DNA of 59,963 nt, counting the filler, from Isurus oxyrinchus (lineage: Eukaryota), in the NCBI GenBank assembly GCA_026770705.1. It is 2 parts of 2 records of this genome, joined end to end, with 100 filler letters (N's around TTAATTAATTAA, not from the genome) between each part and the next. Parts side by side here need not be neighbours in the genome. Positions count along the whole stretch, not along the records: positions 29,670 to 59,963 come from JANJGN010001343.1; 1 more part is not named here. One strand, given 5' to 3'. A program made the position numbers and the translations under genes. Shown piece by piece: positions 22,401-59,963 of this stretch. The stretch's first letter is position 1, and each line of letters starts with the position of its first letter. A model generated the notes under the pieces. That model saw only the letters and a list, made by a program, of their open reading frames with translations. It was not told the origin of the DNA and ran no database searches.

Positions 22401-23228
22401 TCCACGTGTCACTACTGAACTCTCCATGTGTCGCTACTGGACACTCTATGTGTCACTACTGAACTCTCCATGTGTCACTACTGGACTCTACATGTGTCAA
22501 TACTCGACACTCCATGTCTCACTACTCGACACTCCATGTGTCACTACTGAACTCTCCATGTGTCACTACTGGACACTCCATGTCACTACTGAACTCTCCA
22601 TGTGTCACTACTCGACAATCCATGTATCACTACAGAACGCTCCATGTGTCACTACTGGACAATCCATGTGTCACTACTGAACTCTCCATGTGTCACTACT
22701 GGACATTCAATGTGTCACTACTGAACTCTCCATGTGTCACTACTGGACACTCCATGTGTCACTACTGGACACTCAACGTGTCACTACGAGACACTCCATG
22801 TGTCACTGCTGGACATTCCATGTGTCACTACTGAACTCTCCATGTGTCACTACTGAACTCTCCATGTATTGCTACTGAACTCTCCATGTGTCACTATTGA
22901 ACTCTCCATGTGTCACTACTGAACTCTCCATGTATCACTACTGGACACTCCATGTGTCACTACTGAACGCTCGATGTGTCACGACTGAACTCTCCATGTG
23001 TCACTACTGGACACTCCATGTGTCACTACTGAACTCTCCATGTGTCACTACTGGACACTGCATGTGCCACTACTGGACACTCCATGTGTCACTACTGGAC
23101 ACTCCATTTGTCACTACTGAACTCTCCATGTGTCACTACTGAACTCTCCATGTGTCACTACTGGACACTCCATGTGTCACTACGCGACACTCCATGTGTC
23201 ACTACTGGACACTCCATGTGTCACTATT
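19470..23228. repeat. 22-bp minisatellite, about 170 copies (CCATGTGTCACTACTG[AACTCT/GACACT])
   Basis: Tandem units with two interspersed main variants, inside the predicted leader-V intron. Confidence 0.97.
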
Positions 23229-23667
23229 ACCGGGAACAACACCCTTCCCGAGTGACCATATCTTTTTGGGGGTGGGGGGGGGGGGGCCGGGTGGGACATG
23301 AGACAGGTCCGTCCCCTCAGCTGTTGGAAAGTGACCCCATAGTCCCTGTTGTTGTTGATGCGGAGGGGGAACAGCAGGGAGCTCCCCTGCGCCCTTTGCA
23401 AATTTCTGAAACCGACCAGCACCCTTTCAGCAAAGAAATAAATCCCCAAATCTATTGCCCCCTAATGGTATTTGCTGTCTGGAATCTTGCTGCCTGCAAA
23501 TTGGCGCTGGCCTTATCCGCAGTGACTGCTCTTTGAGAATAGAAACAGCCTTTGGGTGGGAAGCGCTCTGGAAAAGGCCTGAGGCTTTAATTTGTCTCTT
23601 TCCAGGCACCCCTCCTTCATAGCAGCAGGACTGGAAATGTGAACCTGCTCCATGTTCCACTCCACAG

Positions 23668-23962
23668 GAATTCTGGCCTCTTATGTGGAGCAGTTCCCTT
23701 CTACCGAGTCTCAGTCAGCAGGAGAATCCACAACCCTCGAGTGCACTCTGAGCAGTACTGCATCTCGCTCCATGTCCTGGTACACACAACAGGCAGATCG
23801 GGCAATGGAAGCTCTGTTCTATTCTGCTGGGAAAGATATGGTGACAAATGACACCGCCGACTCTCTGAGCACCAACAGGCCCAGCGATACCCTGTTTACC
23901 CTGGAATTGAGAGGGGCCTCTCTCTCTCATGCCGCTCTCTACGTCTGTGCTTGTAGTTATTG
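23668..23962 (+). CDS. TRBV: T-cell receptor V segment 1 (beta-type), apparently intact germline V exon
   Basis: CCACAG acceptor (phase 1). Ig V framework: VEQFP, TLEC, MSWYTQ, RPSDTLFTLEL, AALYVCACS. Followed directly by a 23-RSS. Beta assignment is from framework resemblance. Confidence 0.85.
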
Positions 23963-24001
23963 CACAGCCAGTGAGAAGGTGGATCCGCAGGCACAAAAAC
24001 C
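23963..24001 (+). other. Recombination signal sequence, 23-bp spacer
   Basis: Heptamer CACAGCC (23963-23969), 23 nt, then consensus nonamer ACAAAAACC (23993-24001). Confidence 0.92.
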
Positions 24002-24029
24002 CGCATTGCATCGGTGGCCGGTTAGGGCA

Positions 24030-24977: not shown

Positions 24978-27792
24978 GAGATATCGGACTTGGGATGTCA
25001 ACCTGGAATTGACAATCTAATTAGATATCACACTTGGGATGTCAACCTGGAATTGACAATCTAATTAGATATCAGACTTGGGATGTCAACCTGGAATTGA
25101 CAATCTAATGGGATATCAGACTTGGGATGTCAACCCGGAATTGACAATCTAATTAGATATCAAATTTGGGATGTCAACCTGGAATTGACAATCTAATTAG
25201 AAATCAAACTTGGGATGTCAACCTAGAACTGACAATCTAATTAGATATCAAACTTGGGATGTCAACCTGGAATTGACAATCTAATTAGATATCAAACTTG
25301 GGATGTCAACCTAGAACTGACAATCTAATTAGATATCAAACTTGGGATGTCAACCTGGAATTGACAATCTAATTAGATATCAGACTAGGGATGCCAACCT
25401 GGAATTGACAATCTAATTAGATATCAAACTTGGGATGTCAACCTGGAATTGACAACCTAATTAGATATCAAACTTGGGATGTCAACCTGGAATTGACAAT
25501 CTAATTAGATATCAAACTTGGGATGTCAACCTGGAATTGACAATCTAATTAGATATCAGACTTGGGATGTCAACCTGGAATTGACAATCTAATTAGATAT
25601 CAAACTTGGGATGTCAACCTGGAATTGACAATCTAATTAGATATCAGACTTGGGATGTCAACCTGGAATTGATAATCTAATTAGATATCAGATTTGGGAT
25701 GTCAACCTGGAATTGACAATCTAATTAGATATCAGACTTGGGATGTCAACCTGGAATTGACAATCTAATTAGATATCAAACTTGGGATGTCAACCTGGAA
25801 TTGACAATCTAATTAGATATCAGACTAGGGATGCCAACCTGGAATTGACAATTTAATTAGATAACAGAATTGGGATGTCAACCTGGAATTGACAATCTAA
25901 TTAGATATCAGATTTGGGATGTCAACCTGGAATTGACAATCTCATTAGATATCAGACTTGGGATGTCAACCTGGAATTGACAATCTAATTAGATATCAGA
26001 CTTGGGATGTCAACCTGGAATTGACAATCTAATTAGATATCAAACTTGGGATGTCAACCTAGAACTGACAATCTAATTAGATATCAAACTTGGGATGCCA
26101 ACCTGGAATTGACAATCTAATTAGATATCAAACTTGGGATGTCAACCTGGAATTGACAACCTAATTAGATATCAAACTTGGGATGTCAACCTGGAATTGA
26201 CAATCTAATTAGATATCAGACTTGGGATGTCAACCTGGAATTGACAATCTAATTAGATATCAGACTTGGGATGTCAACCTGGAATTGACAATCTAATTAG
26301 ATATCAAACTTGGGATGTCAACCTGGAATTGACAATCTAATTAGATATCAGACTTGGGATGTCAACCTGGAATTGACAATCTAATTAGATATCAAACTTG
26401 GGATGTCAACCTGGAATTGACAATCTAATTAGATATCAAGCTTGGGATGTCAACCTGAAATTGACAATCTAATTAGATATCAGACTTGGGATGTCAACCT
26501 GGAATTGACAATCTAATTAGATATCAGACTTGGGATGTCAACCTGGAATTGATAATCTAATTAGATATCAGACTTGGGATGTCAACCTGGAATTGATAAT
26601 CTAATTAGATATCAGATTTGGGATGTCAACCTGGAATTGTCAATCTAATTAGATATCAGACTTGGGATGTCAACCTGGAATTGACAATCTAATTAGATAT
26701 CAGTTTTGGGATGTCAACCTGGAATTGACAATCTAATTAGATATCAAACTTGGGATGTCAACCTGGAATTGACAATCTAATTAGATATCAAACTTGGGAT
26801 GTCAACCTGGAATTGACAATCTAATTAGATATCAAATTTGGGATGTCAACCTGGAATTGACAATCTAATTAGATATCACACTTGGGATGTCAACCTGGAA
26901 TTGACAATCTAATTAGATATCAAACTTGGGATGTCAACCTGGAATTGACAGTCTAATTAGATATCAGACTTGGGATGTCAACTTGGAATTGACAATCTAA
27001 TTAGATATCAGATTTGGGATGTCAACCTGGTATTGACAATCTAATTAGATATCAAACTTGGGATGTCAACCTGGAATTGACAATCTAATTAGATATCAGA
27101 CTTGGGATGTCAACCTGGAATTGACAATCTAATTAGATATCAGACTAGGGATGCCAACCTGGAATTGACAATTTAATTAGATATCAGACCTGGGATGTCA
27201 ACCTGGAATTGACAATCTAATTAGATATCAGATTTGGGATGTCAACCTGGAATTGACAATCTAATTAGATATCAAACTTGGGATGTCAACCTGGAATTGA
27301 CAATCTAATTAGATATCAAACTTGGGATGTCAACCTGGAATTGACAATCTAATTAGATATCAGACTTGGGATGTCAACCTGGAATTGACAATCTAATTAG
27401 ATATCAAACTTGGGATGTCAACCTGGAATTGACAATCTAATTAGATATCACGCTTGGGATGTCAACCTGGAATTGACAATCTAATCAGATATCAAGCTTG
27501 GGAACTCAACCTGGAATTGACAATCTAATTAGATATCAGACTTGGGATGTCAACTTGGAATTGACAATCTAATTAGATATCAGACTTGGGATGTCAACCT
27601 GGAATTGACAATCTAATTAGATATCAGACTTGGGATGTCAACCTGGAATTGACAATCTAATTAGATATCAGACTTGGGATGTCAACCTGGAATTGACAAT
27701 CTAATTAGATATCAGACTTGGGATTCCAACCTGGAATTGACAATCTAATTAGATATCAGACTTAGGATGTCAACCTGGAATTGACAATCTAA
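24978..27792. repeat. 44-bp minisatellite, about 64 copies (GGGATGTCAACCTGGAATTGACAATCTAATTAGATATCAGACTT)
   Basis: Highly homogeneous tandem units with internal palindromes. Confidence 0.97.
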
Positions 27793-28560: not shown

Positions 28561-28957
28561 GCATGTGTCACCAGGCCAGGAAATGTCCATTGTCCTACCG
28601 GTGCCGTGTTTGGGGGAAGGTTTGATGCATCTTCCTGGATGAAGAGGCAGGTGTGGTTTTAACTTGTGCTGTTGTAGGAAGCAATTCAGTCAGTTAAAAG
28701 CTAAATGCGGCAGATGCTGGAAACCTGAAACATGCTTTTCCAGCTGGTCCACCGACCTCGGGTACTGAGGCCAATTGCATGGCTGTCGTGCTGCTACAAT
28801 AGAATTGGAGGGACCCTGAGGGTCCAGGAATTACAGCGTGTAGCTTCAGCCAGTTGAGTGCGCACCGTGAGGTTTGACAGGGGAGTTTCTCACTGTCCTT
28901 ATTCTGGCTGTGCTTATATGATCCGTTCTCTCTCTCATCTTTTCCTTTCCTCCTCAG

Positions 28958-29258
28958 ACACTTGCAGGAGCGCCTCCTTACCCAGTGGGGGGTCCGGCTG
29001 TCTGTTGTACAGGGGCAGACGGCGGAGATGCACTGTTACCAGAACGACACTGAGCATATCAACATGTACTGGTACCGTCAGCACCCCGGGGCAGGGCTGC
29101 AGCTCATGGTCACCTCGGTGGGTACCTCAGAGCCCAGGCCTGAAGAGGGGTTCAAGGAGAGGTTTGAAGTGACGAGACACAACACCAAGTGGTGCAGCCT
29201 GAAAATACTGAGCGTGGAGCTGACTGACCCTGCGGTTAGTTCCTGCGCTGCTGGTGAA
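28958..29258 (+). pseudogene. TRBV: TCR V-beta-like segment 2, probable pseudogene
   Basis: V framework TQW, AEMHC, MYWYRQHPGAGLQLM, EEGFKERFEVTR, SLKI, DPAVSSCAAG. A phase-1 reading from the CTCAG acceptor (28957) is out of frame with the V body, YxC has become SSC, and the RSS is degenerate (CACAGGG at 29259-29265, poor nonamer). Confidence 0.75.
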
Positions 29259-29569
29259 CACAGGGAATGAGAGCTGCTCCCGGGCTGGATCAGGAACAGA
29301 CTCACCTCTGGTCCTGTCAGACTCAAGTACAGGAAACTCCAGTCAGCTGCACTGGTAAAAGTCACCAGATCATTGATGAAGGGTGTCCGATTTCCCACAA
29401 GATTGTGACTGGCTAGAACAATGTCTCAGCTTCTCAACAGTTCGGAACCCCAAACTCAGCACCTCCCAGAGCGGAGGGAATTAGCTCGAGTGAAAGGTGA
29501 AGGTTAACACGGGGACAGTGTTCAGTTCAAACTGCTTCATATCCCTTCTCAGTAATTCCATTCCCTCAA

Positions 29570-29669
29570 NNNNNNNNNNNNNNNNNNNNNNNNNNNNNNN
29601 NNNNNNNNNNNNNTTAATTAATTAANNNNNNNNNNNNNNNNNNNNNNNNNNNNNNNNNNNNNNNNNNNN
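29570..29669. other. Artificial scaffold-joining spacer (44 N + TTAATTAATTAA + 44 N)
   Basis: Exactly 100 bp, symmetrical, with a six-frame stop linker at 29614-29625. Confidence 0.95.
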
Positions 29670-30492
29670 TGTTCCTGATGGAATAGCGGATGGTCATTCT
29701 TATTGCTTGAAGGTTCCCCGTTGTGTAGGGTCTGTTTGGATCAGTGCACGGCTCTTTGTAGCTGCATGAGCCTTTGCTCTAGTGCCCTGCCGCTGTCAAT
29801 GGCCCTTTCTGCCACAAGCCTTGCAGGATTGGTGGAAAGCTGGGCATTTCCTTGGTGCCTGCAGAAGGCCACACCTTCCACATGTCTCACTAGGTTTGGA
29901 TGTTCTAGTCAGTGTGTCAACAATTGATGTTGTACTGAGGACCTGTAAGCTTCGTTGACCTGCGAGGATCACTTCGTATTTATGTCGATCCTTGAGTAGC
30001 TCTTCAATGCTATAGGTTTTGGTCTTATCTAGCAGATCTCACCACGAGGGATCCGTTTGCTCCCCAGCTCTTTACTTGAGCTCTTTCCCGTCACTGTGTC
30101 TTCAAAGGTTTCCTGAGCAGTCAGTACACTGCGATTTCAACCCTCTCTGATGCTGTGTCTCTGTTATGGTCTGACCAAAGCGTTGAGGGTCGTCTCATGT
30201 CATGTAGCTCGATCTCAGGCTGTTCACCACGTCATACCTGTACTGAATCTTGCTGCCAGAATGTTTGGCCACCGCTGATCACCATGTTGTGTTTTTATAA
30301 TGATATAAAGGCACCAGCCACTGATACGGAATTAGGTAAATACATTGTGGATTCATTTATTTAGAATAGTGACATGAGAACAGATACACAAGGATAGAAA
30401 CTGGGAGACACCTGCAGCCAAACTGTGTGAGCTGTGTTCTGCTCACAGGCCAAAGTGAAACTTGGACTGGATGGTGTTATCATCCCAGCTGA

Positions 30493-32393: not shown

Positions 32394-32762
32394 TTGGACT
32401 GTCACAAGAATGGGAAAGTAACACTCCACGAGAGGTGACAGCGCAGGAAGGTTCATGTGTACAGATTCCATGTCATTACAATTACCCATCACATTTGTTA
32501 GAGAAAACACGTGTCGGAATCTGGAATATGAGGAGGGACAAATGGAATACATTGTCTACAGCCTTTCACTCCAAGGATCACAGTCACGAGTTACCACGGT
32601 TCCACCATCGGACCCGGCTGTCTGGAGACCTGAAAGATGGTGACTGTTCCCTGATTATAAACAACATCAGACGGGGAGATACAGGATTTTTTTTTTTCAG
32701 AATAGAATTTGACAATGGTCGGAGCCACAACTATTATCCTGTAACCCAGCTTCACGTTTCTG
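32394..32762 (+). CDS. Siglec/MAG-like receptor, V-set exon A
   Basis: AG/GT-bounded, 369 nt, phase 1-1. Siglec V-set signature CVQIPC, GDCSL and the F-strand essential Arg (FFRIE). Confidence 0.88.
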
Positions 32763-34992: not shown

Positions 34993-35361
34993 CTGAACCC
35001 TCACAAGAGTGGAAAGGTGACACTCCACGAGAGGTGACAGCGCAGGAAGATTCGTGTGTACTGATTCCGTGTCATTACAGTTATCCATCGTGTCTGGAAA
35101 ACCAACCGCGAGGTGGAGTCTGGTTTAATAATGAGGAACAGATTTCCTGGGCTCCCATTGCCTTTTACTCCAAGGATCACAGTCACGAGTTACCACGGTT
35201 CCGCCATCGGACCCGGCTGTCTGGAGACCTGAAAGATGGCGACTGTTCCCTGATTATAAACAACATCAGACGGGAAGATGCAGGACCTTATTTTTTCAGA
35301 ATAGAATTTGACAATGGTCCGAGCCATAACTATTACCCTGTAACCCAGCTTCACGTTTCTG
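34993..35361 (+). CDS. Siglec/MAG-like receptor, V-set exon B
   Basis: 369 nt, phase 1-1, with CVLIPC, GDCSL and DAGPYFFRIE. Tandem duplicate of exon A at an offset of 2599 bp. Confidence 0.9.
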
Positions 35362-36174: not shown

Positions 36175-36471
36175 ATTTCACAGATAAACCCATGATATTC
36201 CCTGCTGAAATTATTGCAGGAAAGCGTGTGGATGTAAGCTGCACCTTCAACACAACGTGCAATGGAACAGCAGCACCTGTCTTAACCTGGGACACTCCCA
36301 CTGACGTACCTGGATCAGTCTCAAACACTGTAACTCAGCATGGTGTCACTCTGACCTATACTTCTGTTCTGACCCTGATCCCATCACTCAAACACCACGG
36401 ACACACTCTCAGCTGCAGAGTGAGATATCCATCTGTTTCATCGGAGCAGACCCTTATGCTAACTGTAAAAT
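36175..36471 (+). CDS. Siglec-like receptor, domain-2 C2-set exon
   Basis: TTAG/GTAAGT-bounded, 297 nt. DFTDKP..VSCTFNTTC..PVLTW..SVLTLIPSLKHHGHTLSCRV, including the extra Cys for the Siglec D1-D2 disulfide. Confidence 0.9.
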
Positions 36472-39029: not shown

Positions 39030-39900
39030 GATACGAGCATTAGTGGACTGTATTAGACCATTATCGAAAATGAAAGCCGGACTCCAGTATGGCCTCACTA
39101 TGATGGATATGACAAATCGATTTCCAGAGACCATCCCTTTAGGAACAATTACAGCTAAAGTAGTAATAGGGAAGTTAACCCAATTTTTTACCCATTATGG
39201 ATTACTGCTGGAGATCCAGTCAGATCAAGGTTCCATCTCTATGTCTTAAAATTTTCCGAACATAATGAGTAATTTGGGTATAAAACAGTTAAAGTCCACA
39301 GCATATCATCCATAGACACGGGGATCTTTAGAGAGGGACCAACAAACCCTCAAAACAATGATTGAAGCTATTGTCATGAACTCCCCATGACTGGGACAAA
39401 GGACTGGATTTTCTTGTATTTCCCACACGAGATTCACCAAATGAATCGGCAGGTTTTAGTCTTTTTGGAATAACTTATGGACACGAGATAAGAGGCTGTC
39501 TGAAATACATCAAAGAAAGATATTCCGGACAGAGGGATGAATCCTCTATTTCAGATGATGTGTCCATGTTTCAGGAACGGCTCATAGGAGCCTCCAAAGT
39601 GGCACAAGAACATCTTATAGTTTCTCAAACAGAAATGAAGGAATGGGGCAGACAGGCAAGCTGTGACCCGAACATCACAACCAGGGGGATGACGTGTTAG
39701 TATCATTGCCTTGGCAGGGGGAGCCTCTGAAAGCGTGGTTCAGTGGTCCCCACAAGGTAATTAGGAGGGTTGGTCAAGTAAATTATTTGATAGACACCCC
39801 AGATTGTAGAATAAAGAATCGGCTGTGACACATCAATATGTTAAAACGATACCATCGTAGGGAGGGAGGTAAAAAGGAGCAGGTATTTCATTTCCAACCA
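39030..39900 (+). mobile_element. Gypsy-type LTR retrotransposon integrase remnant
   Basis: VDCIRPL..LTMMDMTNRFPETIPL..FFTHYGLLLEIQSDQGS matches an rve core. Stops and frameshifts follow. Confidence 0.8.
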
Positions 39901-40079: not shown

Positions 40080-40605
40080 ACAGACCACACACGCACCAAC
40101 AGACACACACACACATGNNNNNNNNNNNNNNNNNNNNNNNNNNNNNNNNNNNNNNNNNNNNNNNNNNNNNNNNNNNNNNNNNNNNNNNNNNNNNNNNNNN
40201 NNNNNNNNNNNNNNNNNNNNNNNNNNNNNNNNNNNNNNNNNNNNNNNNNNNNNNNNNNNNNNNNNNNNNNNNNNNNNNNNNNNTACACGCACACGCGCAC
40301 ACAGACAACACACACGCACACACAACACACACACACCTGCACACACGCACATGCACACACACGCACACACACACACACACGCATACACACACACACGTAA
40401 GCACGCACATTCACATGCACACGCACACATACACAACACACNNNNNNNNNNNNNNNNNNNNNNNNNNNNNNNNNNNNNNNNNNNNNNNNNNNNNNNNNNN
40501 NNNNNNNNNNNNNNNNNNNNNNNNNNNNNNNNNNNNNNNNNNNNNNNNNNNNNNNNNNNNNNNNNNNNNNNNNNNNNNNNNNNNNNNNNNNNNNNNNNNN
40601 NNNNN
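40080..40605. repeat. (CA)n-rich microsatellite with two assembly gaps
   Basis: Direct inspection. Confidence 0.9.
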
Positions 40606-41015: not shown

Positions 41016-41297
41016 ATGCACCACGGAATCTCTCAATCAATTCTCTTGATATGATTAACGCTTCATGGATCAATATAATTGAGGGGAATTCTGCAGTGAT
41101 AATCTGCTCTGTCGAGAGCTTCCCAGCTTCTAACCTGACGTGGCGACATCTTAATGTCCCACTGATCAGAACAAGTTCCAACGATGAGCTGTGGCTGGTG
41201 ATTCCTCACGTTACATCCAAGGACACTGGAAACTATCAGTGTGTGGCAGAGAATGAACATGGAGCAGTGGAGGGATTCATAAACATCACTGTGGAAT
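41016..41297 (+). CDS. Siglec-like receptor, C2-set exon 3a
   Basis: TTTAG/GTGAGT-bounded, 282 nt, phase 1-1. YAPRNLSI..IICSVESFPASNLTW..DTGNYQCVAENEHG. Confidence 0.88.
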
Positions 41298-42184: not shown

Positions 42185-42466
42185 ATGCACCACGGAACCT
42201 ATCAATTACTTCTCTTGATATGATTAACGCTTCATCCATCAACATAATTGAGGGGAATTCTGCAGTGATAATCTGCTCTGTCGAGAGCTTCCCAGCTTCT
42301 AACCTGACGTGGCGACATCTTAATGTCCCAATGAACAGAACAAGTTCCAACAATGAGCTGTGGTTGGTGATTCCTCACGTTACATCCAGGGACACTGGAG
42401 ACTATCAGTGTGTGGCAGAGAATGAACATGGAGCAGTGGAGGGGTTCATAACCATCACTGTGGAAT
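42185..42466 (+). CDS. Siglec-like receptor, C2-set exon 3b (duplicate of 3a)
   Basis: 282 nt, phase 1-1, near-identical to 3a (DTGDYQCVAENEHG). Confidence 0.88.
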
Positions 42467-44335: not shown

Positions 44336-44611
44336 ATTCCCCACAGGAGACGATGGTGTCCATCAGCAGATCCTCAGGTGGGATAAGAGAGGGAAGCAAT
44401 ATCACATTAACCTGCTCCAGTGAAAGTGTCCCACCGATATCTCATTACACCTGGTTCAGGATCGAGGGGAACACCAGCACCCAGTTAAACACAAGTAGCC
44501 GCACTCTCTCCTTCACTCCTGTAACACGGGAGAATGATGCAGGTTTCTACTGCACAGCGAGGAACCCAATGGGTAACAGCACCTCCAACATCACCCACCT
44601 GAACGTACAAT
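44336..44611 (+). CDS. Siglec-like receptor, C2-set exon 4
   Basis: TCCAG/GTAAGC-bounded, 276 nt. IREGSNITLTCSSESVPPISHYTWF..DAGFYCTARNPMG. Confidence 0.9.
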
Positions 44612-45567: not shown

Positions 45568-45861
45568 ATAAGCCGGAGATTTCCCAGCAGTCAGAGTGCA
45601 CTCGGAGGTCAGAGGGGGTCACCTGCATCTGTGTGGCCAACTCCAACCCACCCGGAGACCTCACCTGGCACCTGCCCAGTGCCAACATCAGTGCTAACCA
45701 AACACACGGAGGTTTTGTGTCGTGGCAGGTCAGAGATGGGCATCTGGTGACTGGTTCCCTCACCCTGATGAGACCCCAGGATGAGGGGGGAGTGATTGCA
45801 TCCTGCTCGGTTCAAAACCCACATGGGGAAGCCATGTTCAAGATGTATCTGTGGGTCAAAG
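45568..45861 (+). CDS. Siglec-like receptor, membrane-proximal Ig exon (MAG domain-5-like)
   Basis: CTCAG/GTGAAA-bounded, 294 nt. SECTRRSEGVTCICVANSNPPGDLTWHLPSANIS shows the C..CxC..SNP pattern of MAG and CD33-related proximal domains. Confidence 0.88.
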
Positions 45862-46782: not shown

Positions 46783-46879
46783 GTAGAGACTCCAGTAAAT
46801 GGACAGTAGGATTGTTCACGGCTGGGATCATGTTGAGTGTTTTCCTGGCTGGAATCTTCATCTTCATCTGTGTGAGAAA
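46783..46879 (+). CDS. Siglec-like receptor, transmembrane exon
   Basis: TTTTACAG/GTAAGT-bounded, phase 1-2. GRDSSKWTVGLFTAGIMLSVFLAGIFIFICVRK has no charged TM residue. Absent from the ORF track. Confidence 0.88.
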
Positions 46880-46999
46880 GTAAGTCTGAAGATTTAACTT
46901 GATTTTAATATAAACATTTGTTTAGGATTAATTGGACAGTTTTTACAAAGGGCCAGCACAGGCACGATGGGCTGAGTGGCTCCCTCCTGAGCTGTGAGA

Positions 47000-47470
47000 T
47001 TTTAAATTCTTTCATCGAATGTGACTGTCACTGGCGTGGCCAATACTAATTGCCCATTCCCTAAATGCCCCTTGAGAATGAGGTGGTGAGCTGCCTTCTT
47101 GAACCACTGCAGTCCATGTGGTGTAGGTACACCCACAGTGCTGTTAGAGAGGGAGCTCCAGGATTTTGACCCAGCGACAGTGAAGGAACGGTGATATATT
47201 TCCAAGTCAGGATGGTGAGTGACTTAGAGGGGAACTTCCAGGTGGTGGTGTTCCCATGTGTCTGCTGCCCTTGTCCTTCTAGATGGTAGAGGTCGTGGGT
47301 TTGGAAGGTGCTGTTGAAGGAGCCTTGCTGAGTTGCTGCAGTGCATCTTGTATATGTTACACACACTGCTGCCACTGTGTGTTCATGGTGGAGGGAGTGA
47401 ATGTTTAATGTGGTGGATGGGGTGTAGATCAATCGGGCTGCTTTGTCCTGGATGGTGTCGAGCTTCTTAA
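47000..47470 (-). mobile_element. LINE 3' end (duplicated at about 49470-49935)
   Basis: Reverse complement of the 53750-54180 family. Confidence 0.8.
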
Positions 47471-47602
47471 TTCTGTGCTTTGTGCAGAAGTGATTTAAAG
47501 AGACAGTCCAGTCGTTGGTGTAAGGTTACAGTGGGCACTGTGTCTGTGCTGCACTGACTCTCTGCTATGTGATAACCACAGTGTGATATTGTGTTATTGC
47601 AG

Positions 47603-47684
47603 GAGGAAGACAGCGATGGAGGAGAGAGTTTCAGGGACCAGTGACATTGCATTGACCCCCAGTCCACTCTCTGTGAAGCACCAG
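47603..47684 (+). CDS. Cytoplasmic tail A, exon 1
   Basis: TTGCAG/GTACAG-bounded, 82 nt, phase 2-0 matching the TM exon. RKTAMEERVSGTSDIALTPSPLSVKHQ. Confidence 0.8.
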
Positions 47685-48670
47685 GTACAGGAGCTGTTTA
47701 CACTCACTCCAAAGCTTCAATCTCAGTGTGTAGACAACACATGTCCCAGATTCCCTGCCCAGTTACCCACTGATTTGTACCTGTGGAGTCAGCAATGGTT
47801 CAGTATCATGCTGTCTCTCTGTTATGACACAGCAACTGGTAAAGGCTGTTGTTTAAAAACCCAGAGGGAAACTTTAAACAACTGTCATAACCTATATTTC
47901 CCAGTGGAATGTTTGAGATGCATCTCTAAATTCAGGAATAAGACCACCAGTTCTCGAGATGGGTTTATATCAAACTAAATGAGACATATATTAATTTACA
48001 CAAGTTAAACATATGCACATGGTTACAAACTAGTATTATCATAACTTTTTAACAAATTCTCAAACTAATCTCCTCTAAGACAACCCATAGTCTTTAAGCA
48101 GATTCCAGGCATTTTCACCTCACAAATTCCAGTTTCTCTCTCTATCTCAACCTCCCTTTCTTTCTCTCTCTTTCTCTCTCTCTCATCCTCTCTCTGATTA
48201 CAAGGTTCATGTTATTGAGCCTCACGTCAGGCACCTGTGTGCAGAATCCAAGCCGTCACTCACCAGAGCCATTACCGATTGAGTGCGAGACTGACAGAGG
48301 GTCAGTACTGAGGGAGCGCTGCACCATCGGAGGGTCAGTACTGAGGGAGCGCTGCACTGTCAGAGGGTCAGTACTGAGGTTTTTGCTGCGCTGTCGGAGG
48401 GTCAGTACTGAGGGAGTGCGAGACTGACAGAGGGTCAGTACTGAGGGAGTGCGAGACTGACAGAGGGTCACTATTGAGGATGTGCTGCACTGTTGGAGGG
48501 TCAGTCCTGAGGGAGCACTGCACTGCCATAGGTGGTTTCTTTCATAAGACATGGGAGAGAGAGTTAAACCCACTGAGACACGACTGACATTAACGAAGCT
48601 GCACAATAATTTAACCCTATCAGTGCCAGTAAATAATGTGAGGATGTCTTCTGTTTCCATTTCTCTGTAG

Positions 48671-48919
48671 GGTAAACAGAACGTGCTGATTACTGAGCCC
48701 CGGAACACAACCAGAGACACAACTAGTGAGGGGGAGACCCCAGCTCCCCGGGGTCTCTCTGAAGATGCAGTGGGAGGCGATGCTGGACTTGGGAACCCCG
48801 GCAAACCTGAAGAGTTTCTCTACGCCAATCCCCAAGTTTTGAGGGTGTCCAGTGATGATGGGTCTGTCCACAGGGAAGAGGAGACGGAATACGCACAGAT
48901 CAGGTTTGAGCATAACTGA
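48671..48919 (+). CDS. Cytoplasmic tail A, terminal exon (FLYANP degenerate ITIM, distal TEYAQI)
   Basis: CTGTAG acceptor, phase 0, open to TGA. Confidence 0.8.
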   Translation, partial: GKQNVLITEPRNTTRDTTSEGETPAPRGLSEDAVGGDAGLGNPGKPEEFLYANPQVLRVSSDDGSVHREEETEYAQIRFEHN

Positions 48920-49445
48920 ATGAGAAATGGGGAGTGGGAGTGAGGAGATGTGGGTGTGCGGGTAGGGATTGAGATCCCTGGGAACAGGAAACAACCCACT
49001 GGGGGAGAGGGGGAGAGAGGGAGGAAGGGATGGAATTGGGCTGCGGTTGGTGTGGTTTGGAATGAAATGCTTCTCCAGAGAGGACTGGATGCTGAGCCAT
49101 TGAGGAGTGAGATTCACTGTCTCTCTCTCTCTCTCTCTCTCTTCCTCTCTGTCTCTCTCTTTCTTTCTGTGTCAGTCTCTCATTCTCTATCTCTTGCTCC
49201 TCCTTTAAGATGACCCTTAATGACTGACTTTGTTGACTCAGCTGTTGGTCTCCTGTCCCTAATATCTCCTCATGTGCCTCAGAGTCAGGTGAAATGTGAC
49301 TAACAATCCCCGGATGAGCCTTGGGACATTTTGCTACATTGAAGGTGCTATATAAATGCAAGTTGTTGCAGTAACTCTGATCTGCTTCGATTAACAATGG
49401 AACCACAGAGGTTCCTTCGACAGGGCGTGTGTGCAGCAGGGTCAC

Positions 49446-49451
49446 AATAAA
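49446..49451 (+). terminator. Candidate polyadenylation signal for tail A
   Basis: AATAAA about 530 bp after the stop, just before the second duplicate block begins (about 49458). Confidence 0.5.
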
Positions 49452-50068
49452 TACATTGAGCTGTGAGATTTTTAATTCTTACATCGAATGTGGCTGTCAC
49501 TGGTGATGTCCGCATTGATGCCAATCTCTAACTGCCCTTGAGAAGGTGGTGGTGAGCTACCTTCTTCACCCGCTGCAGTGCATGTGGTGTAGGTACACCC
49601 ACAGTGCTGTTAGAGAGGGAATTCCAGGATGTTAACCCAGCGACAGTGAAGGAATGGTGATATATTTCCAAGTCAGGATGGTGAGTGACTTGGAGGGGAA
49701 CTTCCAGGTGGTGGTGTTCCCATGTGTCTGCTGTCCTTGTCCTTCTGGATGGTAGAGGTCGCGTATTTGGAAGGTGCTGTTGAAGGAGCCTTGCTGAGTT
49801 GCTGCAGTGCATCTTGTAGATGGTACACACACTGCTGCCACTGTGTGTTCATGGTGGAGGGAGTGAATGTTTAATGTGGTGGATGTGGTATGGATCAATC
49901 GGGCTGCTTTGTCCTGGATGGTGTCGAGCGTCTTGATTCTGTGCTTTGTGCAGAGGTGATTTAAAGAGAGAGTCCAGTCATTGGTGTAAGGTTACAGTGG
50001 GCTCTGTGTCTGTGCTGCACTGACTCTCTGCTATATGATAACCACAGTGTGATATTTTGTTATTGCAG

Positions 50069-50150
50069 GAGAAAGACAGCGATGGAGGAGAGAGTTTCAG
50101 GGACCAGTGACATTGCATTGACCCCCAGGTCACTCTCTGTGAAGCACCAG
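50069..50150 (+). CDS. Cytoplasmic tail B, exon 1
   Basis: 82 nt, phase 2-0. RKTAMEERVSGTSDIALTPRSLSVKHQ. Confidence 0.8.
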
Positions 50151-50285
50151 GTACAGGAGCTGTTTACACTCACTCCAAAGCTTCAATCTCAGTGTGTAGA
50201 CAACATATGTCCCAGATTCCCAGCCCAGTTACCCACTGATTTGTACCTGTGGAGTCAGCAATGGTTCAGTATCATGCTGTCTCTC

Positions 50286-51218
50286 TGTTATGACACAGCA
50301 ACTGGTAAAGGCTGTTGCTTAAAATCCCAGAGGGAAACTTTAAACAGCTGTCGTAACCTATATTTCGCAGTGGAATGTTTGAGATGCATCTCTAAATTCA
50401 GGAATAAGACCACCAGTTCTCAAGATGATTTTATATCAATCTAAATGAGACATTTATTAATTTTCACAAGTTAAACATATGCACATGGCTACAAACTAGT
50501 ATTATCATAACTTTATAACAAATTCTCAAACTAATCTCCTCCAAGACAACCCATAGACTTTAAGCAGACACCAGGCAAAGCATTTTCACCTCACAAATTC
50601 CAAATGAGGTTCCTTTCACTTTGGTTCCTTTGCAGACAGGTGTAGGCTTACAGCTGCTTTGATGTTACAAGCCTCTGCTCTGCACACACAAAACTGCTCA
50701 AGTTATACCCAGCTCTTGAGTGTGAAGAAGATGGAGATTGATGGGCTCTTGATTGGTCAGGGGATCAATGGTTAGGAGAGAAGGTGGGAGAATGGGGTTT
50801 GTGAAACATATCAGCCATGTATGAATGGTGGAGCAGACTCGATGGACCGAATGGTCTAATTTCTCCTCCTATGTCTTATGGTCTTATGGCTTCTGTTTGA
50901 AGGTAAATTCGCAATGTATCATCAGGACCTTTGAACTCCATCTCTTCCAATAATAAATCCTCTTTCATCGTATCAATTTTATTAGTAATATAAACGTTGA
51001 TTGGTTTAACATTTCACTCTCAGACTTTGAATGTTTTATTTAAAAATGCAAATTACCACTTTACCTCTTTGTTTACATCTCAAAACTACTATACATCAAA
51101 GCACACAGACTGGCTGGCTTTAATCCAATTAAAATACACACAGACACACACACAGACTAAACCTCTGTTTAAATAGACAGTTTGCAATTGCAATACAAAC
51201 ATTAATAGATTAATAACA
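50286..51218. mobile_element. Solo LTR-like element with nested CR1 tail (about 50715-50890)
   Basis: TGTTAT...ATAACA inverted termini, flanked by CTCTC and CTCTG (imperfect TSD). Confidence 0.65.
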
Positions 51219-51646
51219 CTCTGTCTCTATCCCTCCTCTATCCCTCTCTCTCATCCTCTCTCTGATTACAAGGTTCATGTTATTGAGCCTCACACCAGGC
51301 ACCTGAGCGCAGAATCCAAGCCGTCACTCACCAGAGCCATTACCGAGGGAGTGCGGGACTGACAGCGGGTCAGTACTGAAGGAGTGCTGCACTGTTGGAG
51401 GGTCAGTACTGAGGGAGTGCTGCACTGACAGAGGGTCAGTACTGAGGGAGCGCTGTATTGTCGGAGGGTCAGCACTGAGGGAGTGCTGCACTGTTGGAAG
51501 CTCAGTACTGAGGGAGTGCTGCACTGCCATAGGTGGTGTCTTTTTTCCGATAGGAGAGAGAGAATTAAACAAGTCTGCACAATAATTTAACCCTATCAGT
51601 ACCAGTAAATGATGTGAGGATGTTTTCTGTTTCTATTTCTCTGTAG

Positions 51647-51895
51647 GGTAAACAGAACGTGCTGATTACTGAGGCCCGGAACACAACCAGAGACACAACT
51701 AGCGAGGGGGAGACCCCAGCTCCCCGGGGTCTCTCTGAAGGTGCAGTGGGAGGCGATGTTGGACATGGGAACCCCGACAAACCAGACGAGCTTTTCTACG
51801 CCAACATCAACTTTTCAAAGCTGCCCGGCGGTGACAGGACTGTGCACAGGAGCGAGGAAACGGAATACGCACAGATCAGGTTCCAGAAAAACTGA
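51647..51895 (+). CDS. Cytoplasmic tail B, terminal exon (ITIM LFYANI plus ITSM-like TEYAQI)
   Basis: CTGTAG acceptor, phase 0. Shows the two-tyrosine arrangement of CD33-related Siglecs. Confidence 0.85.
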   Translation, partial: GKQNVLITEARNTTRDTTSEGETPAPRGLSEGAVGGDVGHGNPDKPDELFYANINFSKLPGGDRTVHRSEETEYAQIRFQKN

Positions 51896-52087
51896 GTGTG
51901 AAACAGGGAGCGGGGCTGTGGGGTGTGTGCAGCCAACATGGTCAAATAGTAATGAACAGAAATATGATGTTGCTCAACTTTTTTTATTGTTTCTGAGTGA
52001 GCTTTCTGAATGCTGCACCTTTTTCCATGCTGTAAAAGATTGTGAGAAGCTTATGAATTATGTATAATGTTACATCTGTTAATACAA

Positions 52088-54180
52088 GGTGAGGTGAGAG
52101 TGACTGCCTTTGACATCAAGGCTGCATTTGACCGAGTGTGGCATCTAGGAGCCCGAGCAAAACTGGAATCAATGGGAATCAGGGGTGGTACGAAAGTATA
52201 ATAATTTGCTTAATATTTTCCTGGTTTGTTGTAAACTAGGTTTATGGGTGTGAGTGTAGATGGGTCTGTCTGTGTGGCTTAATTACACCTGGAGTCAGGT
52301 AGACTGCAAGTTTGAGATTATCAAAAGAAGCTAGACGTAGAAATGTACTTGAAATGCTAATGAGAACACATGGAGGCTGCCTTAGCATGTAAGGTGTGAG
52401 GGGAATTTGCATTTTTAGATAAGTGACGGGATTGTTTGGATTTCAAAGGGCTGTTGGTCTGTTTACAACGAGGCCGATATGCAAGGCAAAGGAGTGTGTT
52501 TATTTTTCCCCAAAGGTTATTGACAACATTGGCAACATGAAAGATTTTATATTATAGGAAATGTATAATTCCAAAGACATATGGAACAATGAAATTTACA
52601 TATCAAAGAGAGAGGAACATAAACAAAGGAGAATGAAAGGCTATTTTGGGGACCATGTAAAATCTAACAAGAGTGTGTGAATCAGCCTTGAAGAAGCCTC
52701 CAGGCATTTGTCCATAGGTCTGTTATGTTCAGTGACTATAGATTGAGAAAGCCATTTGGAATTCCACTCTCAAGTGTGTACTGTGTTAACTTGCTGGTTC
52801 TGTTTTTAAATCTAAAATCTATTTTGGACTGTTGCCTTAAATGGGGTTGTACTACTCATCTCTGGGCTCCCCAATGCCTGTCCACCATCTTTAAGGTTAA
52901 TTAGGAAGTTTAGGATTTGTTATAGTAGTAACCGTATCCTTATGTGTGTGCTTGAAATCTTGTATTTTGTTAATAAATATTGAAATTTAATTTTTAAGAT
53001 CTCTAAATGTCTTGGTTGAAACATTACTCCTGAATTCAGTGCACACATCTCATAATAAATACAAATTGCAAAACCGTTGTGAGAGTGTGACCAAGTTTCC
53101 CTTGTGGATTTGGTCCCCCCTGGCACACATCATCTACCACATCATAACAAAGGGAAAACTCTCCACTGGTTGGAGCCATACCCAGCACAAAGGAAGATAG
53201 TTGTGGTTGTTGGAGGTCAATCATCTCAGTTCCAGGACATCACTGCAGGAGTTACTCAGGGTAGTGTCCTCGGCCCAACCATCTTCAGCTGCTTCATCAA
53301 TGACCTTCCTTCCATCATAAGGACAGAAGTGTGGATGTTCACTGATGATTGCACAATGTTCAGCACCATTCACGGCTCCTCAGATACTGAAGCAGTCCTT
53401 GTCCAAATGCAGCAAGACCTGAACCATATTCAGGCTTGCGCTGACAAGTGTCAGGCAATGACCATCTCCAATAAGAGAGAATCTAACCATCGCCCTTTGA
53501 TGTTCAATGGCATTACCATTGCTGAATCCCCCACTATCAACATCCTGGGGATTACCATTGACCTGAAACTGAACTGGACTAGCCATATAAACACTGTGGC
53601 TACAAGAGCAGGTCAGAGGCTGGGAATCATGCAGTGAGTAACTCACTCCAGACTCCCCAAAGCCTGTCCACCACCTTCAAGGCACAGGTCAGGAGTGTGA
53701 TGGAAGACTCTCCACTTGCCTGGATGAGTGCAGCTCCAACAAGATTCAGTAAACTCAACACCACTCAGGACAAAGCAGCCCCGCTAGATCCACTCTCTGC
53801 ACAACCGACACACAGTAGCAGCAGTGTGTACCATCTACACGGTGCACTGCAGGAACTCACCAAGACTCCTTAGGCAGCACCTTCAAACACACAACCACTA
53901 CCATCTCGAATTACAGGGCAGCAGATACATGGTAACAGCACCACCTGGAAGTTACCCTCAAAGTCACTCACCCCCATCCTGACTTGGAAATATACGGCCG
54001 TTCCTGCACTGTCACTGGGTCCAAATCCTGCAATTCCCTCCCTAACAGCACTGCGGGTGTACCTACCCCACATGGACTGCAACAGTTCAAGACAGCAGCT
54101 CACTACCACATTCTCAAGAGCAATTAGGGATGGGCAATAATTCTGGCCTAGACAGCGCCACCCACATCCCATAAATGAAT
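52088..54180 (+). mobile_element. CR1-group LINE RT and 3' end, interrupted by a solo LTR
   Basis: GVTQGSVLGPTIFSCFINDL..MFTDDC in ORF 53104-53637. The 5' piece is 52088-52185. Confidence 0.88.
52186..53149 (+). mobile_element. Solo LTR nested in the LINE
   Basis: TG...CA termini flanked by AGGGG and AAGGG. The LINE reading (MGIRG/KTLHWLE) resumes across it. Confidence 0.72.
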
Positions 54181-55665: not shown

Positions 55666-58600
55666 GGGGATGAGGAAAGGGATGAGGAGGGGGATGAGGA
55701 GGGGGATGAGGAGGGAGATGAGGAGGGGATGAGGAGGGGGATGAGGAGGGAGATGAGGAGGGGGATGAGGAGGGAGAGGAGGGGGAGGATGAGGATGGGA
55801 TGAGGAGAGGGATGAGGAGGGTGATGAGGCGGAGGATGAGGAGGGGATGAGGAGGGGGATGAGGAGGGAGATGAGGAGGGGGATGTGGAGGGAGAGGAGG
55901 GGGAGGATGAGGATGGGATGAGGAGAGGGATGAGGAGGGTGATGAGGCGGAGGATGAGGAGGGGATGAGGAGGGGGATGAGGAGGGAGATGAGGAGGAGG
56001 ATGAGGAGTGGGATAGGGAGGGGGATGAAGAGGGGATGAGAAGGGGATGAGGAGGGGGATGAGGAGGGAGTTGAGGGGATGAGGAGGGAGATGAGGAGGA
56101 GGATGAGGAGGGGATGAGGAGGGGGATGAGGAAGGAGATGAGGAGGGGATGAGGAGGGGATGAGGAGGGGGATGAGGAGGGAGATGAGGAGGAGGATGAG
56201 GGGGGATGAGGAGGGGGATGAGGAGGGGATGATGAGGGGATGAGGAGGGGATGAGGAGGGAGATGAGGAGGGAGAGGAGGAGGGGATGAGGAGGGGGATG
56301 AAGAGGGGGATGAGGAAGGAGATGAGGAGGAGGATGAGGAGGGGATGAGGAGGGGGGATGAGGAGGGAGATGAGGAGGAGGATGAGGAGGGGATAAGGAG
56401 GGGGATGAGGAGGGGATGTGGAGGGAGATGAGGAGGGGGATGCGGAGTGGGATAGGGAGGGGGATGAGGAGGGGATGAGAAGGGGATGAGGAGGGGGATG
56501 AGGAGGGAGTTGAGGGGATGAGGAGGGAGATGAGGAGGAGGATGAGGAGGGGATGAGGAGGGGGATGAGGAGCGAGTTGAGGACGGATGAGGAGGGCGAT
56601 GAGGGGGGGATGAGGAGGGGGATGAGGAGGGAGGTGAGGAGGGAGATGAGGAGGGGATGAGGAGGGGGATGAGGAGGGAGATGAGGAGGAGGATGAGGGG
56701 GGATGAGGAGGGGGATGAGGAGGGAGATAAGGAGGAGGATGAGGAGAGGATGAGGAGGGGGATGAAGAGGGGATGATGAGGGGAAGAGGAGGGCGATGAG
56801 GAGGGGGATGAAGAGGTGATGAGGAGGGAGATGAGGAGGGGGATGAGGAGGGGATGAGAAGTGGATGAGGAGGGGGATGAGGAGGGTGATGAAGAGGTGA
56901 TGAGGAGGGAGATGAGGAGGAGGATGAGGAGGGGATGAGGTGGGGATGAGGAGGGGATGAGGATGAGGAGGGGGGATGAGGAGGGGGATGAGGAGGGGGT
57001 TTAGGAGGGGATGAGGAGGGGGGTCAGGAGGATGATGAGGAGGGAGATGAGGAGGGAATGAGGAGGGGATGAGGTGGGGGATGAGGAGGGAGATGAGGAG
57101 ACGGATGAGGAGCGGGGTGAGGAGGACGATGAAGAGGGGGATGAGGAGGGGATAAGGAGGGAGATGAGGAGGAAATGAGCAGGGGGATGAAGAGGGGGAT
57201 GAGGAGGGAGATAGGGAGGGAGATGAGTACGGGGATGAGGAGGGGGATGAGGAGGGGAGGAGGAGGGTGAGAGGATGAGGAAGGGGATGAGGAGGGGGAT
57301 GAGGAGGGGGAGGGGATGAGGAAGGGGATGAGGAGGGGGATGAGGAGGGGGATGAGGAGGGGGATGAGGAGGGTGATGAGGAGGAGGATGAGGAGGGGAT
57401 GAGGAGGGGGATGAGGAGGAGGATGAGGAGGGGATGAGGAGGGGATGAGGAGGGGGATGAGGAGGGAGATGAGGAGGAGGATGAGGGGGGATGAGGAGGG
57501 GGATGAGGAGGGGATGATGAGGGGATGAGGAGGGGATGAGGAGGGAGATGAGGAGGGAGAGGAGGAGGAATGAGGAGGGGGATGAAGAGGGGATGAGGAA
57601 GAAGATGAGGAGGAGATGAGGAGGGGATGAGGAGGGGGATGAGGAGGGAGATGAGGAGGAGAATGAGGAGGGGATAAGGAGGGGGATGAGGAGGGGATGT
57701 GGAGGGAGATGAGGAGGGGGATGAGGAGTGGGATAGGGAGGGGGATGAGGAGGGGATGAGAAGGGGATGAGGAGGGGGATGAGGAGGGAGTTGAGGGTAT
57801 GAGGAGGGAGATGAGGAGGAGGATGAGGGGATGAGGAGGGGGATGAGGAGCGAGTTGAGGACGGGATGAGGAGGGCGATGAGGAGGGGATGAGGAGGGGA
57901 TGAGCATGAGGAGGGGGATGAGGAGGGGGATGAGGAGGGGGAAGAGGAGGAGGAAGAGGAGGGAGATGAGGAGGTAGATGGGTGGGATGAGGAGGAGGAT
58001 GAGGAGGGGAATGAGGAGGGGGATGAGGAGGGGGAAGAGGAGGGAGATGAGGAGGTAGATGAGGAGGGGGAAGCGGAGGGGATGATGAGGGGATGAAGAG
58101 GAGGATGAGGAGGGGAATGAGGAGGGGGATGAGGAGCGAGATGAGGAGGGGACGAGGAGGGGGAGGGGGAGGTGGAGGGGGATGAGGAGGGGAATGAGGA
58201 GGGGGATGAGGAGGGGATGAGGAGGGAGATGAGGAGGAGGGGATGAGGAGGGAGATGAGGAGGAGGATGAGGAGGGGATGAGGAGGAGATGAGGAGGAGG
58301 ATGAGGAGGGGATGAGGAGGGGGATGAGGAGGGAGATGGGGTGGAGGATGAGGAGGGAATGAGGAGGGAGATGAGGAGGAGGATGAGGAGGTGGATGAGG
58401 AGGGGAATGAGGAGGGGATGATGAGGGGATGAGGAGGGGGATGAGGAGGGAGATGAGGAGGAGGATGAGGAGGGAGATGAGGAGGAGGATGAGGAGGGAG
58501 ATGAGGAGGAGGATGAGGAGAGGATGAGGAGGGGGATGAGGAGAGGATGAGCAGGGCATGAGGAGGAGATGAGGAGGGGATGAGGAGGGGGATGAGGAGG

Positions 58601-59963
58601 GGATGATGAGGGGATGAGGAGGGGATGAGGAGGGAGATGAGGAGGGGATGAGGAGGGGATGAGGAGGGGATGAGGAGGGGGATGAGGAGGGAGATGAGGA
58701 GGGGATGAGGAGGGGATGAGGAGGGGGATGAGGAGGGAGATGAGGAGGAGGATGAGAAGGGGATAAGGAGGGGGATGAGGAGGGGATGAGGAGGGAGATG
58801 AGGAGGGGGATGAGGAGAGGGATAGGGAGGGGGATGAGGAGGGGATGAGGAGGGAGATGAGGAGGAGGATGAGGAGGGAGATGAAGAGAAGAATGAGGAG
58901 GGCATGAGGAGGGGGATGAGGAGGAAGATGAGGAAGAGGATGAGGAGGGGATGAGGAGGGGGATGAGGAGGGAGATGAGGAGGAGGATGAGAAGTGGATG
59001 AGGAGGGGGATGAAAAGGGGATGACGAGGGGAAGAGGAGGGGGATGAGGAGGGAGATGAGGAGGGGATGAGCATGAGGAGGGGGGATGAGGAGGGGGATG
59101 AGGAGGGGGAAGAGGAGGAGGAAGAGGAAGGAGATGAGGAGGTAGATGAGTGGGGATGAGGAGGAGAATGAGGAGGGGAATGAGGAGGGGGATGAGGAGG
59201 GGGAAGAGGAGAGAGATGAGAGGGGGAAGCGGAGGGGATGATGAGGGGATGAAGAGGAGGATGAGGAGGGGAATGAGGAGGGGGATGAGGAGCGAGATGA
59301 GGAGGGGGACGAGGAGGGGGGGAGGTGAAGGGGGATGAGGAGGGGAATGAGGAAGGGAGAGAGGGTGAGGAGGGAGATGAGAGGAGGATGAGGAGGAGAT
59401 GAGGAGGGGATGAGGGAGGGAGATGAGGAGGAGGATGAGGAGGGAAGAGGAGGGGATGAGGAGGGAGATGAGGAGGAGGATGAGGAGGGGATGAGGAGGG
59501 AGATGAGGAGGAGGATGAGGAGGGGATGAGGATGAGGGAGATGAGGATGAGAAGGGGATGAGGAGGGGGATGAGGAGGATGATGAGGAGGATGAGGAGAG
59601 GATGAGGAGGGGATGAGGAGGAGGGATGAGGAAGGATATGAGGAGGGATGAGGAGGGATGAGGATGGGGATGAGGAGGATGAGGAGGTGATGAGGAGGGG
59701 ATGAGGAGGAGGGGGATGAGGAGAGGGAGATGGGAGGGGATGAGGAGGGAGGATGAGGAGGGGATGAGGAGGGAGAGAGGAGGGGATGAGGAGAGGGATG
59801 GGAGGAGGGATGAGGAGGGGATGAGGAGAGGGGATGAGGGGAGGGAGGGATGAGGAGGGGATGAGGAGGGAGATGAGGAGGAGAGGGATGAGGAGGGGAT
59901 GAGGAGGGGGATGAGGAGGGGATGAGGAGGAGATGAGAGGGTAGATGAGGAGGGGGAGGGGAG
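55666..59963. repeat. Purine-rich simple satellite, approximately (GATGAGGAGGGG)n
   Basis: Direct inspection. It runs to the window end and the long minus-strand ORFs are artefacts. Confidence 0.96.

Follow-up and report, generated by a model that had tools for sequence, protein, structure and literature searches.

A Siglec-type receptor gene of Isurus oxyrinchus with two tandem tail modules that are probably spliced together in frame

We analysed a 59,963-nucleotide stretch of Isurus oxyrinchus DNA (GenBank assembly GCA_026770705.1), hereafter the window, which joins two parts of two records; positions 29,670 to 59,963 come from JANJGN010001343.1. On its plus strand the window holds the 3′ end of a Siglec-type receptor gene in which the module encoding the cytoplasmic tail occurs twice in tandem. 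A first-pass annotation had taken the two modules, here A and B, for alternative last exons that form an on/off switch for an ITIM (immunoreceptor tyrosine-based inhibitory motif). Our analysis points to a different arrangement: the main product is probably one in which module A is spliced in frame to module B, giving a tail of around 216 residues with four tyrosines.

Probable splicing of module A into module B

Each tail module consists of an 82-nt short exon (cytA or cytB) and a 249-nt exon that runs to a stop codon (termA or termB), with AG/GT ends throughout. Directly past the codons for TEYAQI, termA contains an internal GT donor (CAG/GTTTGA, between 48903 and 48904) which the first-pass annotation had overlooked. 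The donor is in phase 2, the phase accepted by cytB at 50069, and the join yields an arginine codon and keeps the frame. Of 23 sequencing runs listed, seven were aligned, six being RNA-type and one (X18) DNA-like; the small shares of the other 16 are not taken as evidence. Contigs were aligned at 90% likeness, and their exons differ from the window by around 1-4%. A joint from 48903 to 50069 with GT..AG ends was present in five of the six RNA-type runs (X1, X2, X5, X6 and X12), which come from four samples, four studies and two organisms (A and B). The joint was absent from the DNA-like run, around 48% of which was read, though that run covers bases past the donor. Given short contigs and a large family, the A-to-B joint holds for the gene family and not provably for this locus. 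At the family level, mutually exclusive last exons do not describe these data: termA is spliced internally and in frame to module B in the contigs and also in six white-shark gene models that carry A and B in one protein. Moreover, all ten double-tail records found among shark homologues have an A-type module first and a junction reading ..QI-R-[RK][KT], as the donor in the window predicts.

The sequence around the donor is also suggestive. The last modules of 24 of 26 homologous records end in RF[KQ], which, with paralogue codon use inferred, places A or C at donor position +5. Module A of the window ends in RFE, giving G at +5 and a better match to the consensus than the equivalent site of module B. 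Contig depth drops greatly past 48903 in X1; there is none just after the donor in X5 and X6, and none over the 3′ flank of module A (flank A) in X2, X10 and X12, though depth in contigs is not usable as a measure of isoform ratio. Nor does module B appear to be an orphan relic, one of the outcomes that would have undone the first-pass reading. A B-type exon and its 3′ flank occur in RNA-type contigs, and X1 and X2 contain loose ends leading from the transmembrane exon to a B-type exon, which are indistinguishable from those of paralogues.

Tail motifs, duplication and shark relatives

An identical 15-mer at 46989 and 49458 marks the start of the duplicated block, as first annotated. Self-BLAST aligned 46988-48131 with 49457-50602 at 93.3% identity over 1149 nt, and 48159-48938 with 51226-51914 at 81-86%. 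Identity is 93-96% across the duplicated intron and short exon, with cytA and cytB sharing 79 of 82 nt. As the first-pass annotation had it, the terminal exons are equal in length (48671-48919 and 51647-51895, 249 nt each) and nearly identical at the 5′ end before they diverge: five differences fall in the first 130 nt (96% identical) and 31 in the last 119 (around 77% identical), a change point reached by none of 2000 shuffles. The sequences after stop A and stop B have no similarity to each other (best local score 24, matched by 26 of 100 shuffles). Repeat sequence extends upstream of block A, whereas block B begins at the breakpoint. Since block B starts six bases past the AATAAA of tail A, which lies at 49446 as first annotated, the duplication breakpoint sits at an A-type poly(A) signal. 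The breakpoint at 49457 is spanned by contigs of both organism A (X1) and organism B (X6, at a depth of 3 and with 14 differences). Pfam returned no family for either tail.

The ITIM is defined as (S/I/V/L)xYxx(I/V/L) and the ITSM (immunoreceptor tyrosine-based switch motif) as TxYxx(V/I), and SHP SH2 sites are conserved throughout jawed vertebrates (PMC12151841). The proximal motif of module B, LFYANI, meets this ITIM consensus and the [ILVS]xYxx[ILV] form of the first-pass annotation; FLYANP of module A fails both and contains YxN and YxxP. TEYAQI, which fits TxYxx[VI], is kept in both tails, also as first described. The premise that the proximal ITIM dominates agrees with its being the key domain in Siglec-7 and Siglec-9 (PMC7165337). 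However, 'on/off' overstates the case, as module A retains TxYxxI and ITSM-type motifs bind SHP-2 in PD-1 (PMC12151841). Alanine at +1 promotes SHP-1 binding, and phenylalanine at +5 aided SHP-2 binding in another motif (PMC12151841). Module B has an ITIM with Ala at +1, Ile at +3 and Phe at +5, followed 23 residues further by TEYAQIRF. Two motifs with Ala+1 and Phe+5 at this spacing make it a likely docking site for SHP-1/SHP-2; module B would engage these through both SH2 domains, as PD-1 does. In module A the proximal motif has Pro at +3 and splicing swaps the Phe at +5 of the distal motif for Arg; it is therefore likely to be a poorer phosphatase site. YxN is preferred by Grb2, and YxxP by Crk, Nck and Abl types. 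Module A would more likely bind adaptors through its YxN and YxxP, and the long form would combine adaptor and inhibitory modules in one tail. We infer these roles of modules A and B from their motifs alone. The gene does not fit an activating receptor of the DAP12-coupled type, as the hydrophobic transmembrane stretch has no Lys or Arg and tyrosine motifs are present.

Close homologues of the tail are from white and basking shark, at up to 85-87% identity, and a repeat of the search with tail A gave no new protein. From 54 homologous proteins, 24 isoform records were dropped and four had no recognised module. The 26 gene-level records kept comprise nine A-only (one an odd fused model), seven B-only, six A+B and four A+A. 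Across 37 modules, a proximal ITIM is found in 13 of 14 B-type but in none of 23 A-type modules; YxN is kept in 13 and 21 of these respectively, and the distal TxYxxI in 11 and 21. In each of the ten non-lamniform records (whale, zebra, epaulette, cat and smooth-hound sharks) there is a single module with an ITIM-type proximal motif. On this outside sampling of ten records, the B-type tail therefore looks ancestral, and the A-type tail and the doubling look lamniform.

White- and basking-shark RefSeq Siglec-like models (XP_041037215-221, XP_041037155, XP_041037234, XP_041037239; XP_078389744, XP_078389619) have the same transmembrane exon, two-exon module and in-frame junction past TEYAQI. Concatenated A+B proteins are already in automatic annotation, from which alone the six white-shark records with the A-then-B order of the window are known. 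The doubles seen in basking shark are A+A, unlike the A+B of the window. Exon order in the window equals that of the white-shark A+B genes, where the best matches of the ectodomain exons and long tail exons stand at 79-94%. The 12th match of a profile search, a repetitive bacterial protein (E 1.8e-04), was dismissed as motif-level resemblance. One basking-shark model (P0015), like its isoforms, passes from a tail module on to the leader and V exons that belong to the following gene, which suggests read-through between cluster neighbours or mis-annotation.

The two halves of the modules have different affinities. Over residues 44-77, the motif half, window A agrees with each of the six first modules of white shark at 30-31 of 34 residues, and window B with the six second ones at 29-31, against 18 of 34 between A and B; a tree clusters window A with the white-shark first modules (local support 0.947). 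In the 5′ spacer half, A and B of the window share 39 of 43 residues, against 34-38 (A) and 35-36 (B) with their white-shark counterparts. A tree of the 5′ part puts window B among A-type modules, on near-zero branches, and one single-tail paralogue (P0011) matches window A at 39 of 43 residues there, equal to window B. Old motif halves with alike spacer halves would fit a crossover before these species split, followed by 5′ conversion, and within-gene conversion of the 5′ parts seems likely. The double tail would have arisen by unequal crossover of A-type and B-type paralogues with the break at an A-type poly(A) signal, and gene conversion would afterwards have evened out the motif-free 5′ parts of the modules. 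A plain recent tandem duplication was ruled out by the unrelated 3′ flanks and the old motif halves. A compensated frameshift was considered as the origin of YxxP: two indels add three matches (29 versus 26 of 42), a gain found in 1 of 1000 shuffles, but shuffling also destroys ungapped likeness.

Alternative readings of the locus

Several observations weigh against an in-frame A+B protein with an inhibitory second module as the main product of this gene. The short side of the joint contigs measures only 27-33 letters, paralogues may supply the joints, and no contig spans the distance from the transmembrane exon to stop B. Run X10, which does not cover the 3′ part of termA, lacks the joint and seems to have a short exon followed solely by a B-type exon, and X1 covers bases just past the internal donor. 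The internal donor and the donors of the cyt exons fit the donor consensus used for splice-site scoring at six of nine positions, the site in B at five. The run types are tool guesses, and X12 is flagged as likely to be DNA, although its pieces break off at exon boundaries. The white-shark models are automatic, and some of the records may be alleles on separate scaffolds. LFYANI fails a narrower definition of the ITIM that ends in [L/V] (PMC7226832), and module A fails it likewise. Finally, neither tblastn nor a six-frame peptide scan found a leader (signal peptide) exon within the window, which has N gaps upstream; this copy may therefore be incomplete.

Single-module forms alongside A+B are plausible. 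The closest white-shark gene has six listed isoforms, of which X1, X2 and X6 (isoform names, distinct from our runs) are A+B, X4 and X5 are B-only and X3 is A-only. In isoform X3 the donor of A skips the second short exon, which results in a frameshift stop and no ITIM, and the window permits the same ending. The A-only and B-only products envisaged by the first-pass annotation are thus annotated in the white-shark counterpart, but the A-only form arises by exon skipping and not through the poly(A) signal of A. These models, together with the loose ends from transmembrane to B-type exons in X1 and X2, are what would be expected of a regulated cassette switch, a revision of the first-pass idea in which A+B, B-only and A-only forms are all made in meaningful amounts and their ratio, governed by tissue or cell state, tunes inhibition. 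Such a switch is compatible with in-frame A+B splicing but makes switching the main function. However, B-only models are also expected from mis-mapped reads of single-tail B-type paralogues (five lamniform records), isoform ratios cannot come from contig depth, and tissue regulation is hypothetical; we consider this reading possible but doubtful. With A+B as the main product, exon skipping would likely add B-only and A-only forms as lesser products.

Strict alternative last exons, whereby a transcript either ends at stop A with its own AATAAA or skips to B and never contains both, are very improbable. The anatomy of a composite terminal exon is present, with the donor at 48903/48904, stop A at 48917-48919 and an intact 3′ flank and AATAAA at 49446. 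Cover past the donor in X1 and flank-A-like pieces in X1, X5 and X6 would fit such an ending, though these pieces may equally be pre-mRNA, single-tail paralogues or a short form. Use of stop A and its AATAAA was not seen in the contigs, which cannot show transcript ends. Against strict alternatives stand the A-to-B joint in most RNA-type runs and the concatenated white-shark models, and in the closest white-shark gene none of the six isoforms listed continues through A as far as the stop of A. Moreover, one contig of X1 passes over the AATAAA and on into block B, and no poly(A) loose end occurs among the matches listed, which are a minority of all.

It is also unlikely that the gene is a silent or truncated cluster member or a mis-assembly of paralogues, with the joints coming from other genes and module B being the remnant of a deleted neighbour. 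The missing leader exon, the N gaps at 29570-29669 and 40118-40605, the repeated ectodomain exon duplications and the several sites at which contigs differ from the window would all agree with this. However, all 12 exons have an open frame and AG/GT ends, in the same order as in the white-shark A+B genes, and an X2 contig matches 51991-52142 without a difference. The contigs of X1 and X6 that bridge 49457 argue against the arrangement being solely an artefact of the present assembly.

In the intron before termB there is an extra acceptor at 51273 (homologous to 48205). One X1 contig, with a single differing base, joins it to a short tail exon, and in the frame of the window it would lead to a short, tyrosine-free end.

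Gene anatomy, neighbouring features and known systems

The gene comprises two V-set exons, five further Ig exons, one transmembrane exon and the two copies of the tail module (Table 1). Matches to Pfam V-set, Ig_CD22, C2-set_2 and Ig_3 were obtained for the ectodomain exons. The top 17 solved-structure matches of the V domain are all Siglecs, the best being Siglec-5, Siglec-7, CD33, Siglec-8, MAG, Siglec-10 and sialoadhesin. YFFRIE of the V domain aligns with YFFRVE of Siglec-5 and YFFRME of Siglec-7, as do CxxxPC and CSL. The F-strand Arg of YFFRIE we take to be the sialic-acid-binding Arg of Siglecs. A Siglec-like V-set followed by C2-type Ig domains and one transmembrane segment is the architecture of the Siglec family, here with two V-set exons, and the first-pass assignment to a Siglec-type gene is borne out.

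Table 1. Features of the Siglec-type gene in the window.
Feature	Position	Strand	Remarks
V-set exon 1	32394..32762	+	open frame, F-strand FFFFRIE; Pfam V-set 7e-11, Ig_CD22 1.4e-08 over most of exon
V-set exon 2, Siglec-type	34993..35361	+	Cys pattern and YFFR align with Siglec-5/-7
C2-set exon a	36175..36471	+	
Ig exon b, copy 1	41016..41297	+	
Ig exon b, copy 2	42185..42466	+	267/282 nt same as copy 1
Ig exon c	44336..44611	+	
Membrane-proximal Ig exon d	45568..45861	+	exon-bounded contig pieces in runs X1, X12
Transmembrane exon	46783..46879	+	phase 2 end; hydrophobic stretch without charged residue
Duplicated block A	46989..48131	+	starts inside dispersed repeat; contains cytA
cytA, short tail exon	47603..47684	+	entered in phase 2, left in phase 0; joined to 48671 in X1, X2
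termA as internal exon	48671..48903	+	contains YANP motif and TEYAQI; bounded 3′ by the internal donor (phase 2)
termA read-through end (FEHN, stop)	48904..48919	+	intronic in long form
AATAAA of tail A	49446..49451	+	six bases 5′ of duplication breakpoint
Duplicated block B	49458..50602	+	5′-truncated repeat; contains cytB
cytB, short tail exon	50069..50150	+	takes termA donor in frame
termB, last exon	51647..51895	+	ITIM LFYANI, TEYAQIRF, stop; contigs in X2, X10, X12
Two candidate poly(A) signals past stop B	52972..53059 (52972, 53054)	+	

To judge by its sequence, the ectodomain is also enlarged by tandem exon duplication. The two V exons are 86.5% identical and the two Ig-b exons 94.7% identical, and relatives differ widely in domain number. 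In X2 contigs the end of an Ig-b-type exon is joined directly to the transmembrane exon at 46783, as in several relatives, which reflects either ectodomain exon skipping or a shorter paralogue. The intron after C2-set exon a contains, at 39050-39900, a decayed retroelement integrase-like sequence with stops, as judged by eye.

Elsewhere in the window, a T-cell receptor (TCR) beta-like V segment that has a heptamer, a 23-nt spacer and a nonamer as its recombination signal lies at 23643-24002 (+), around 8 kb upstream of the Siglec-type gene; its best matches are TCR V-beta chains, and no paper was found on such linkage. A second V segment at 28957-29300 (+; Pfam V-set, antibody and TCR-beta matches) has Ser where Tyr would precede the second Cys, lacks a clear nonamer and is likely a pseudogene. 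An open exon of 303 codons at 6741-7652 (+) encodes a rhodopsin-family G protein-coupled receptor (Pfam 7tm_1, 1.7e-21), with a possible first exon at around 4788-4853. Long minisatellite arrays, whose units measure around 32, 22 and 38 nt, and a low-complexity run rich in purines occupy 12660-18400, 19480-23230, 24990-27790 and 55670-59963.

Structurally, the V domain is best matched by CD33-related Siglecs (Siglec-5, -7, -9 and CD33; E 2e-15 to 1e-12), a likeness only; like the window, these Siglecs have a proximal ITIM and a distal TEYxxI (PMC7165337). They carry one motif pair, whereas in the window the pair is doubled and its first copy has YxxP. The long multi-tyrosine tail of CD22 (Siglec-2), with ITIMs and a Grb2-linked site, loosely resembles the long form (PMC8615218). 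However, its V-domain match is weak (E 7e-05), and the available part of that source does not describe a recent tandem module duplication for CD22. Splicing alters the tail of long and short Siglec-8 and of L- and S-MAG (PMC8615218), as here, and the internal donor, stop and downstream poly(A) signal of composite terminal exons (PMC5928244), such as that of secreted and membrane IgM, recur in termA. Unlike in these cases, splicing in the window adds a second paralogous signalling module and does not remove or swap an unrelated end. Compared with PD-1, TEYAQIRF fits (T/V)EYATIx(F/Y) save at +2, the spacing is 23 versus 25 residues, and the ITIM of module B shares Phe+5 and Ala+1; the ectodomains are unrelated, and the likeness is one of motifs only (PMC12151841).

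In the literature on shark Siglecs and tail duplication, subscription papers not covered, we found no description of the doubled-tail arrangement. Fish genomes have been described as lacking inhibitory CD33-related Siglecs in a teleost study whose available text does not contain the word 'shark' (PMC7226832). In contrast to that statement, the shark data point to an expanded family of ITIM-bearing Siglec-type receptors. The arrangement also offers a simple route to a longer inhibitory tail: a GT that lies two codons ahead of the former C-terminus happens to share its phase with the first exon of the module, so that any tandem copy would be read in frame. The biology would be lineage-specific and the motif functions are predicted ones. 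More tentatively, mackerel sharks may have a modular Siglec tail code, in which adaptor (YxxP) and ancestral ITIM modules are shuffled between genes (A, B, A+A and A+B) and chosen by splicing within A+B genes, while conversion homogenises the spacers and spares the motif halves. If so, one receptor would switch between adaptor-only, inhibitory-only and combined signalling.

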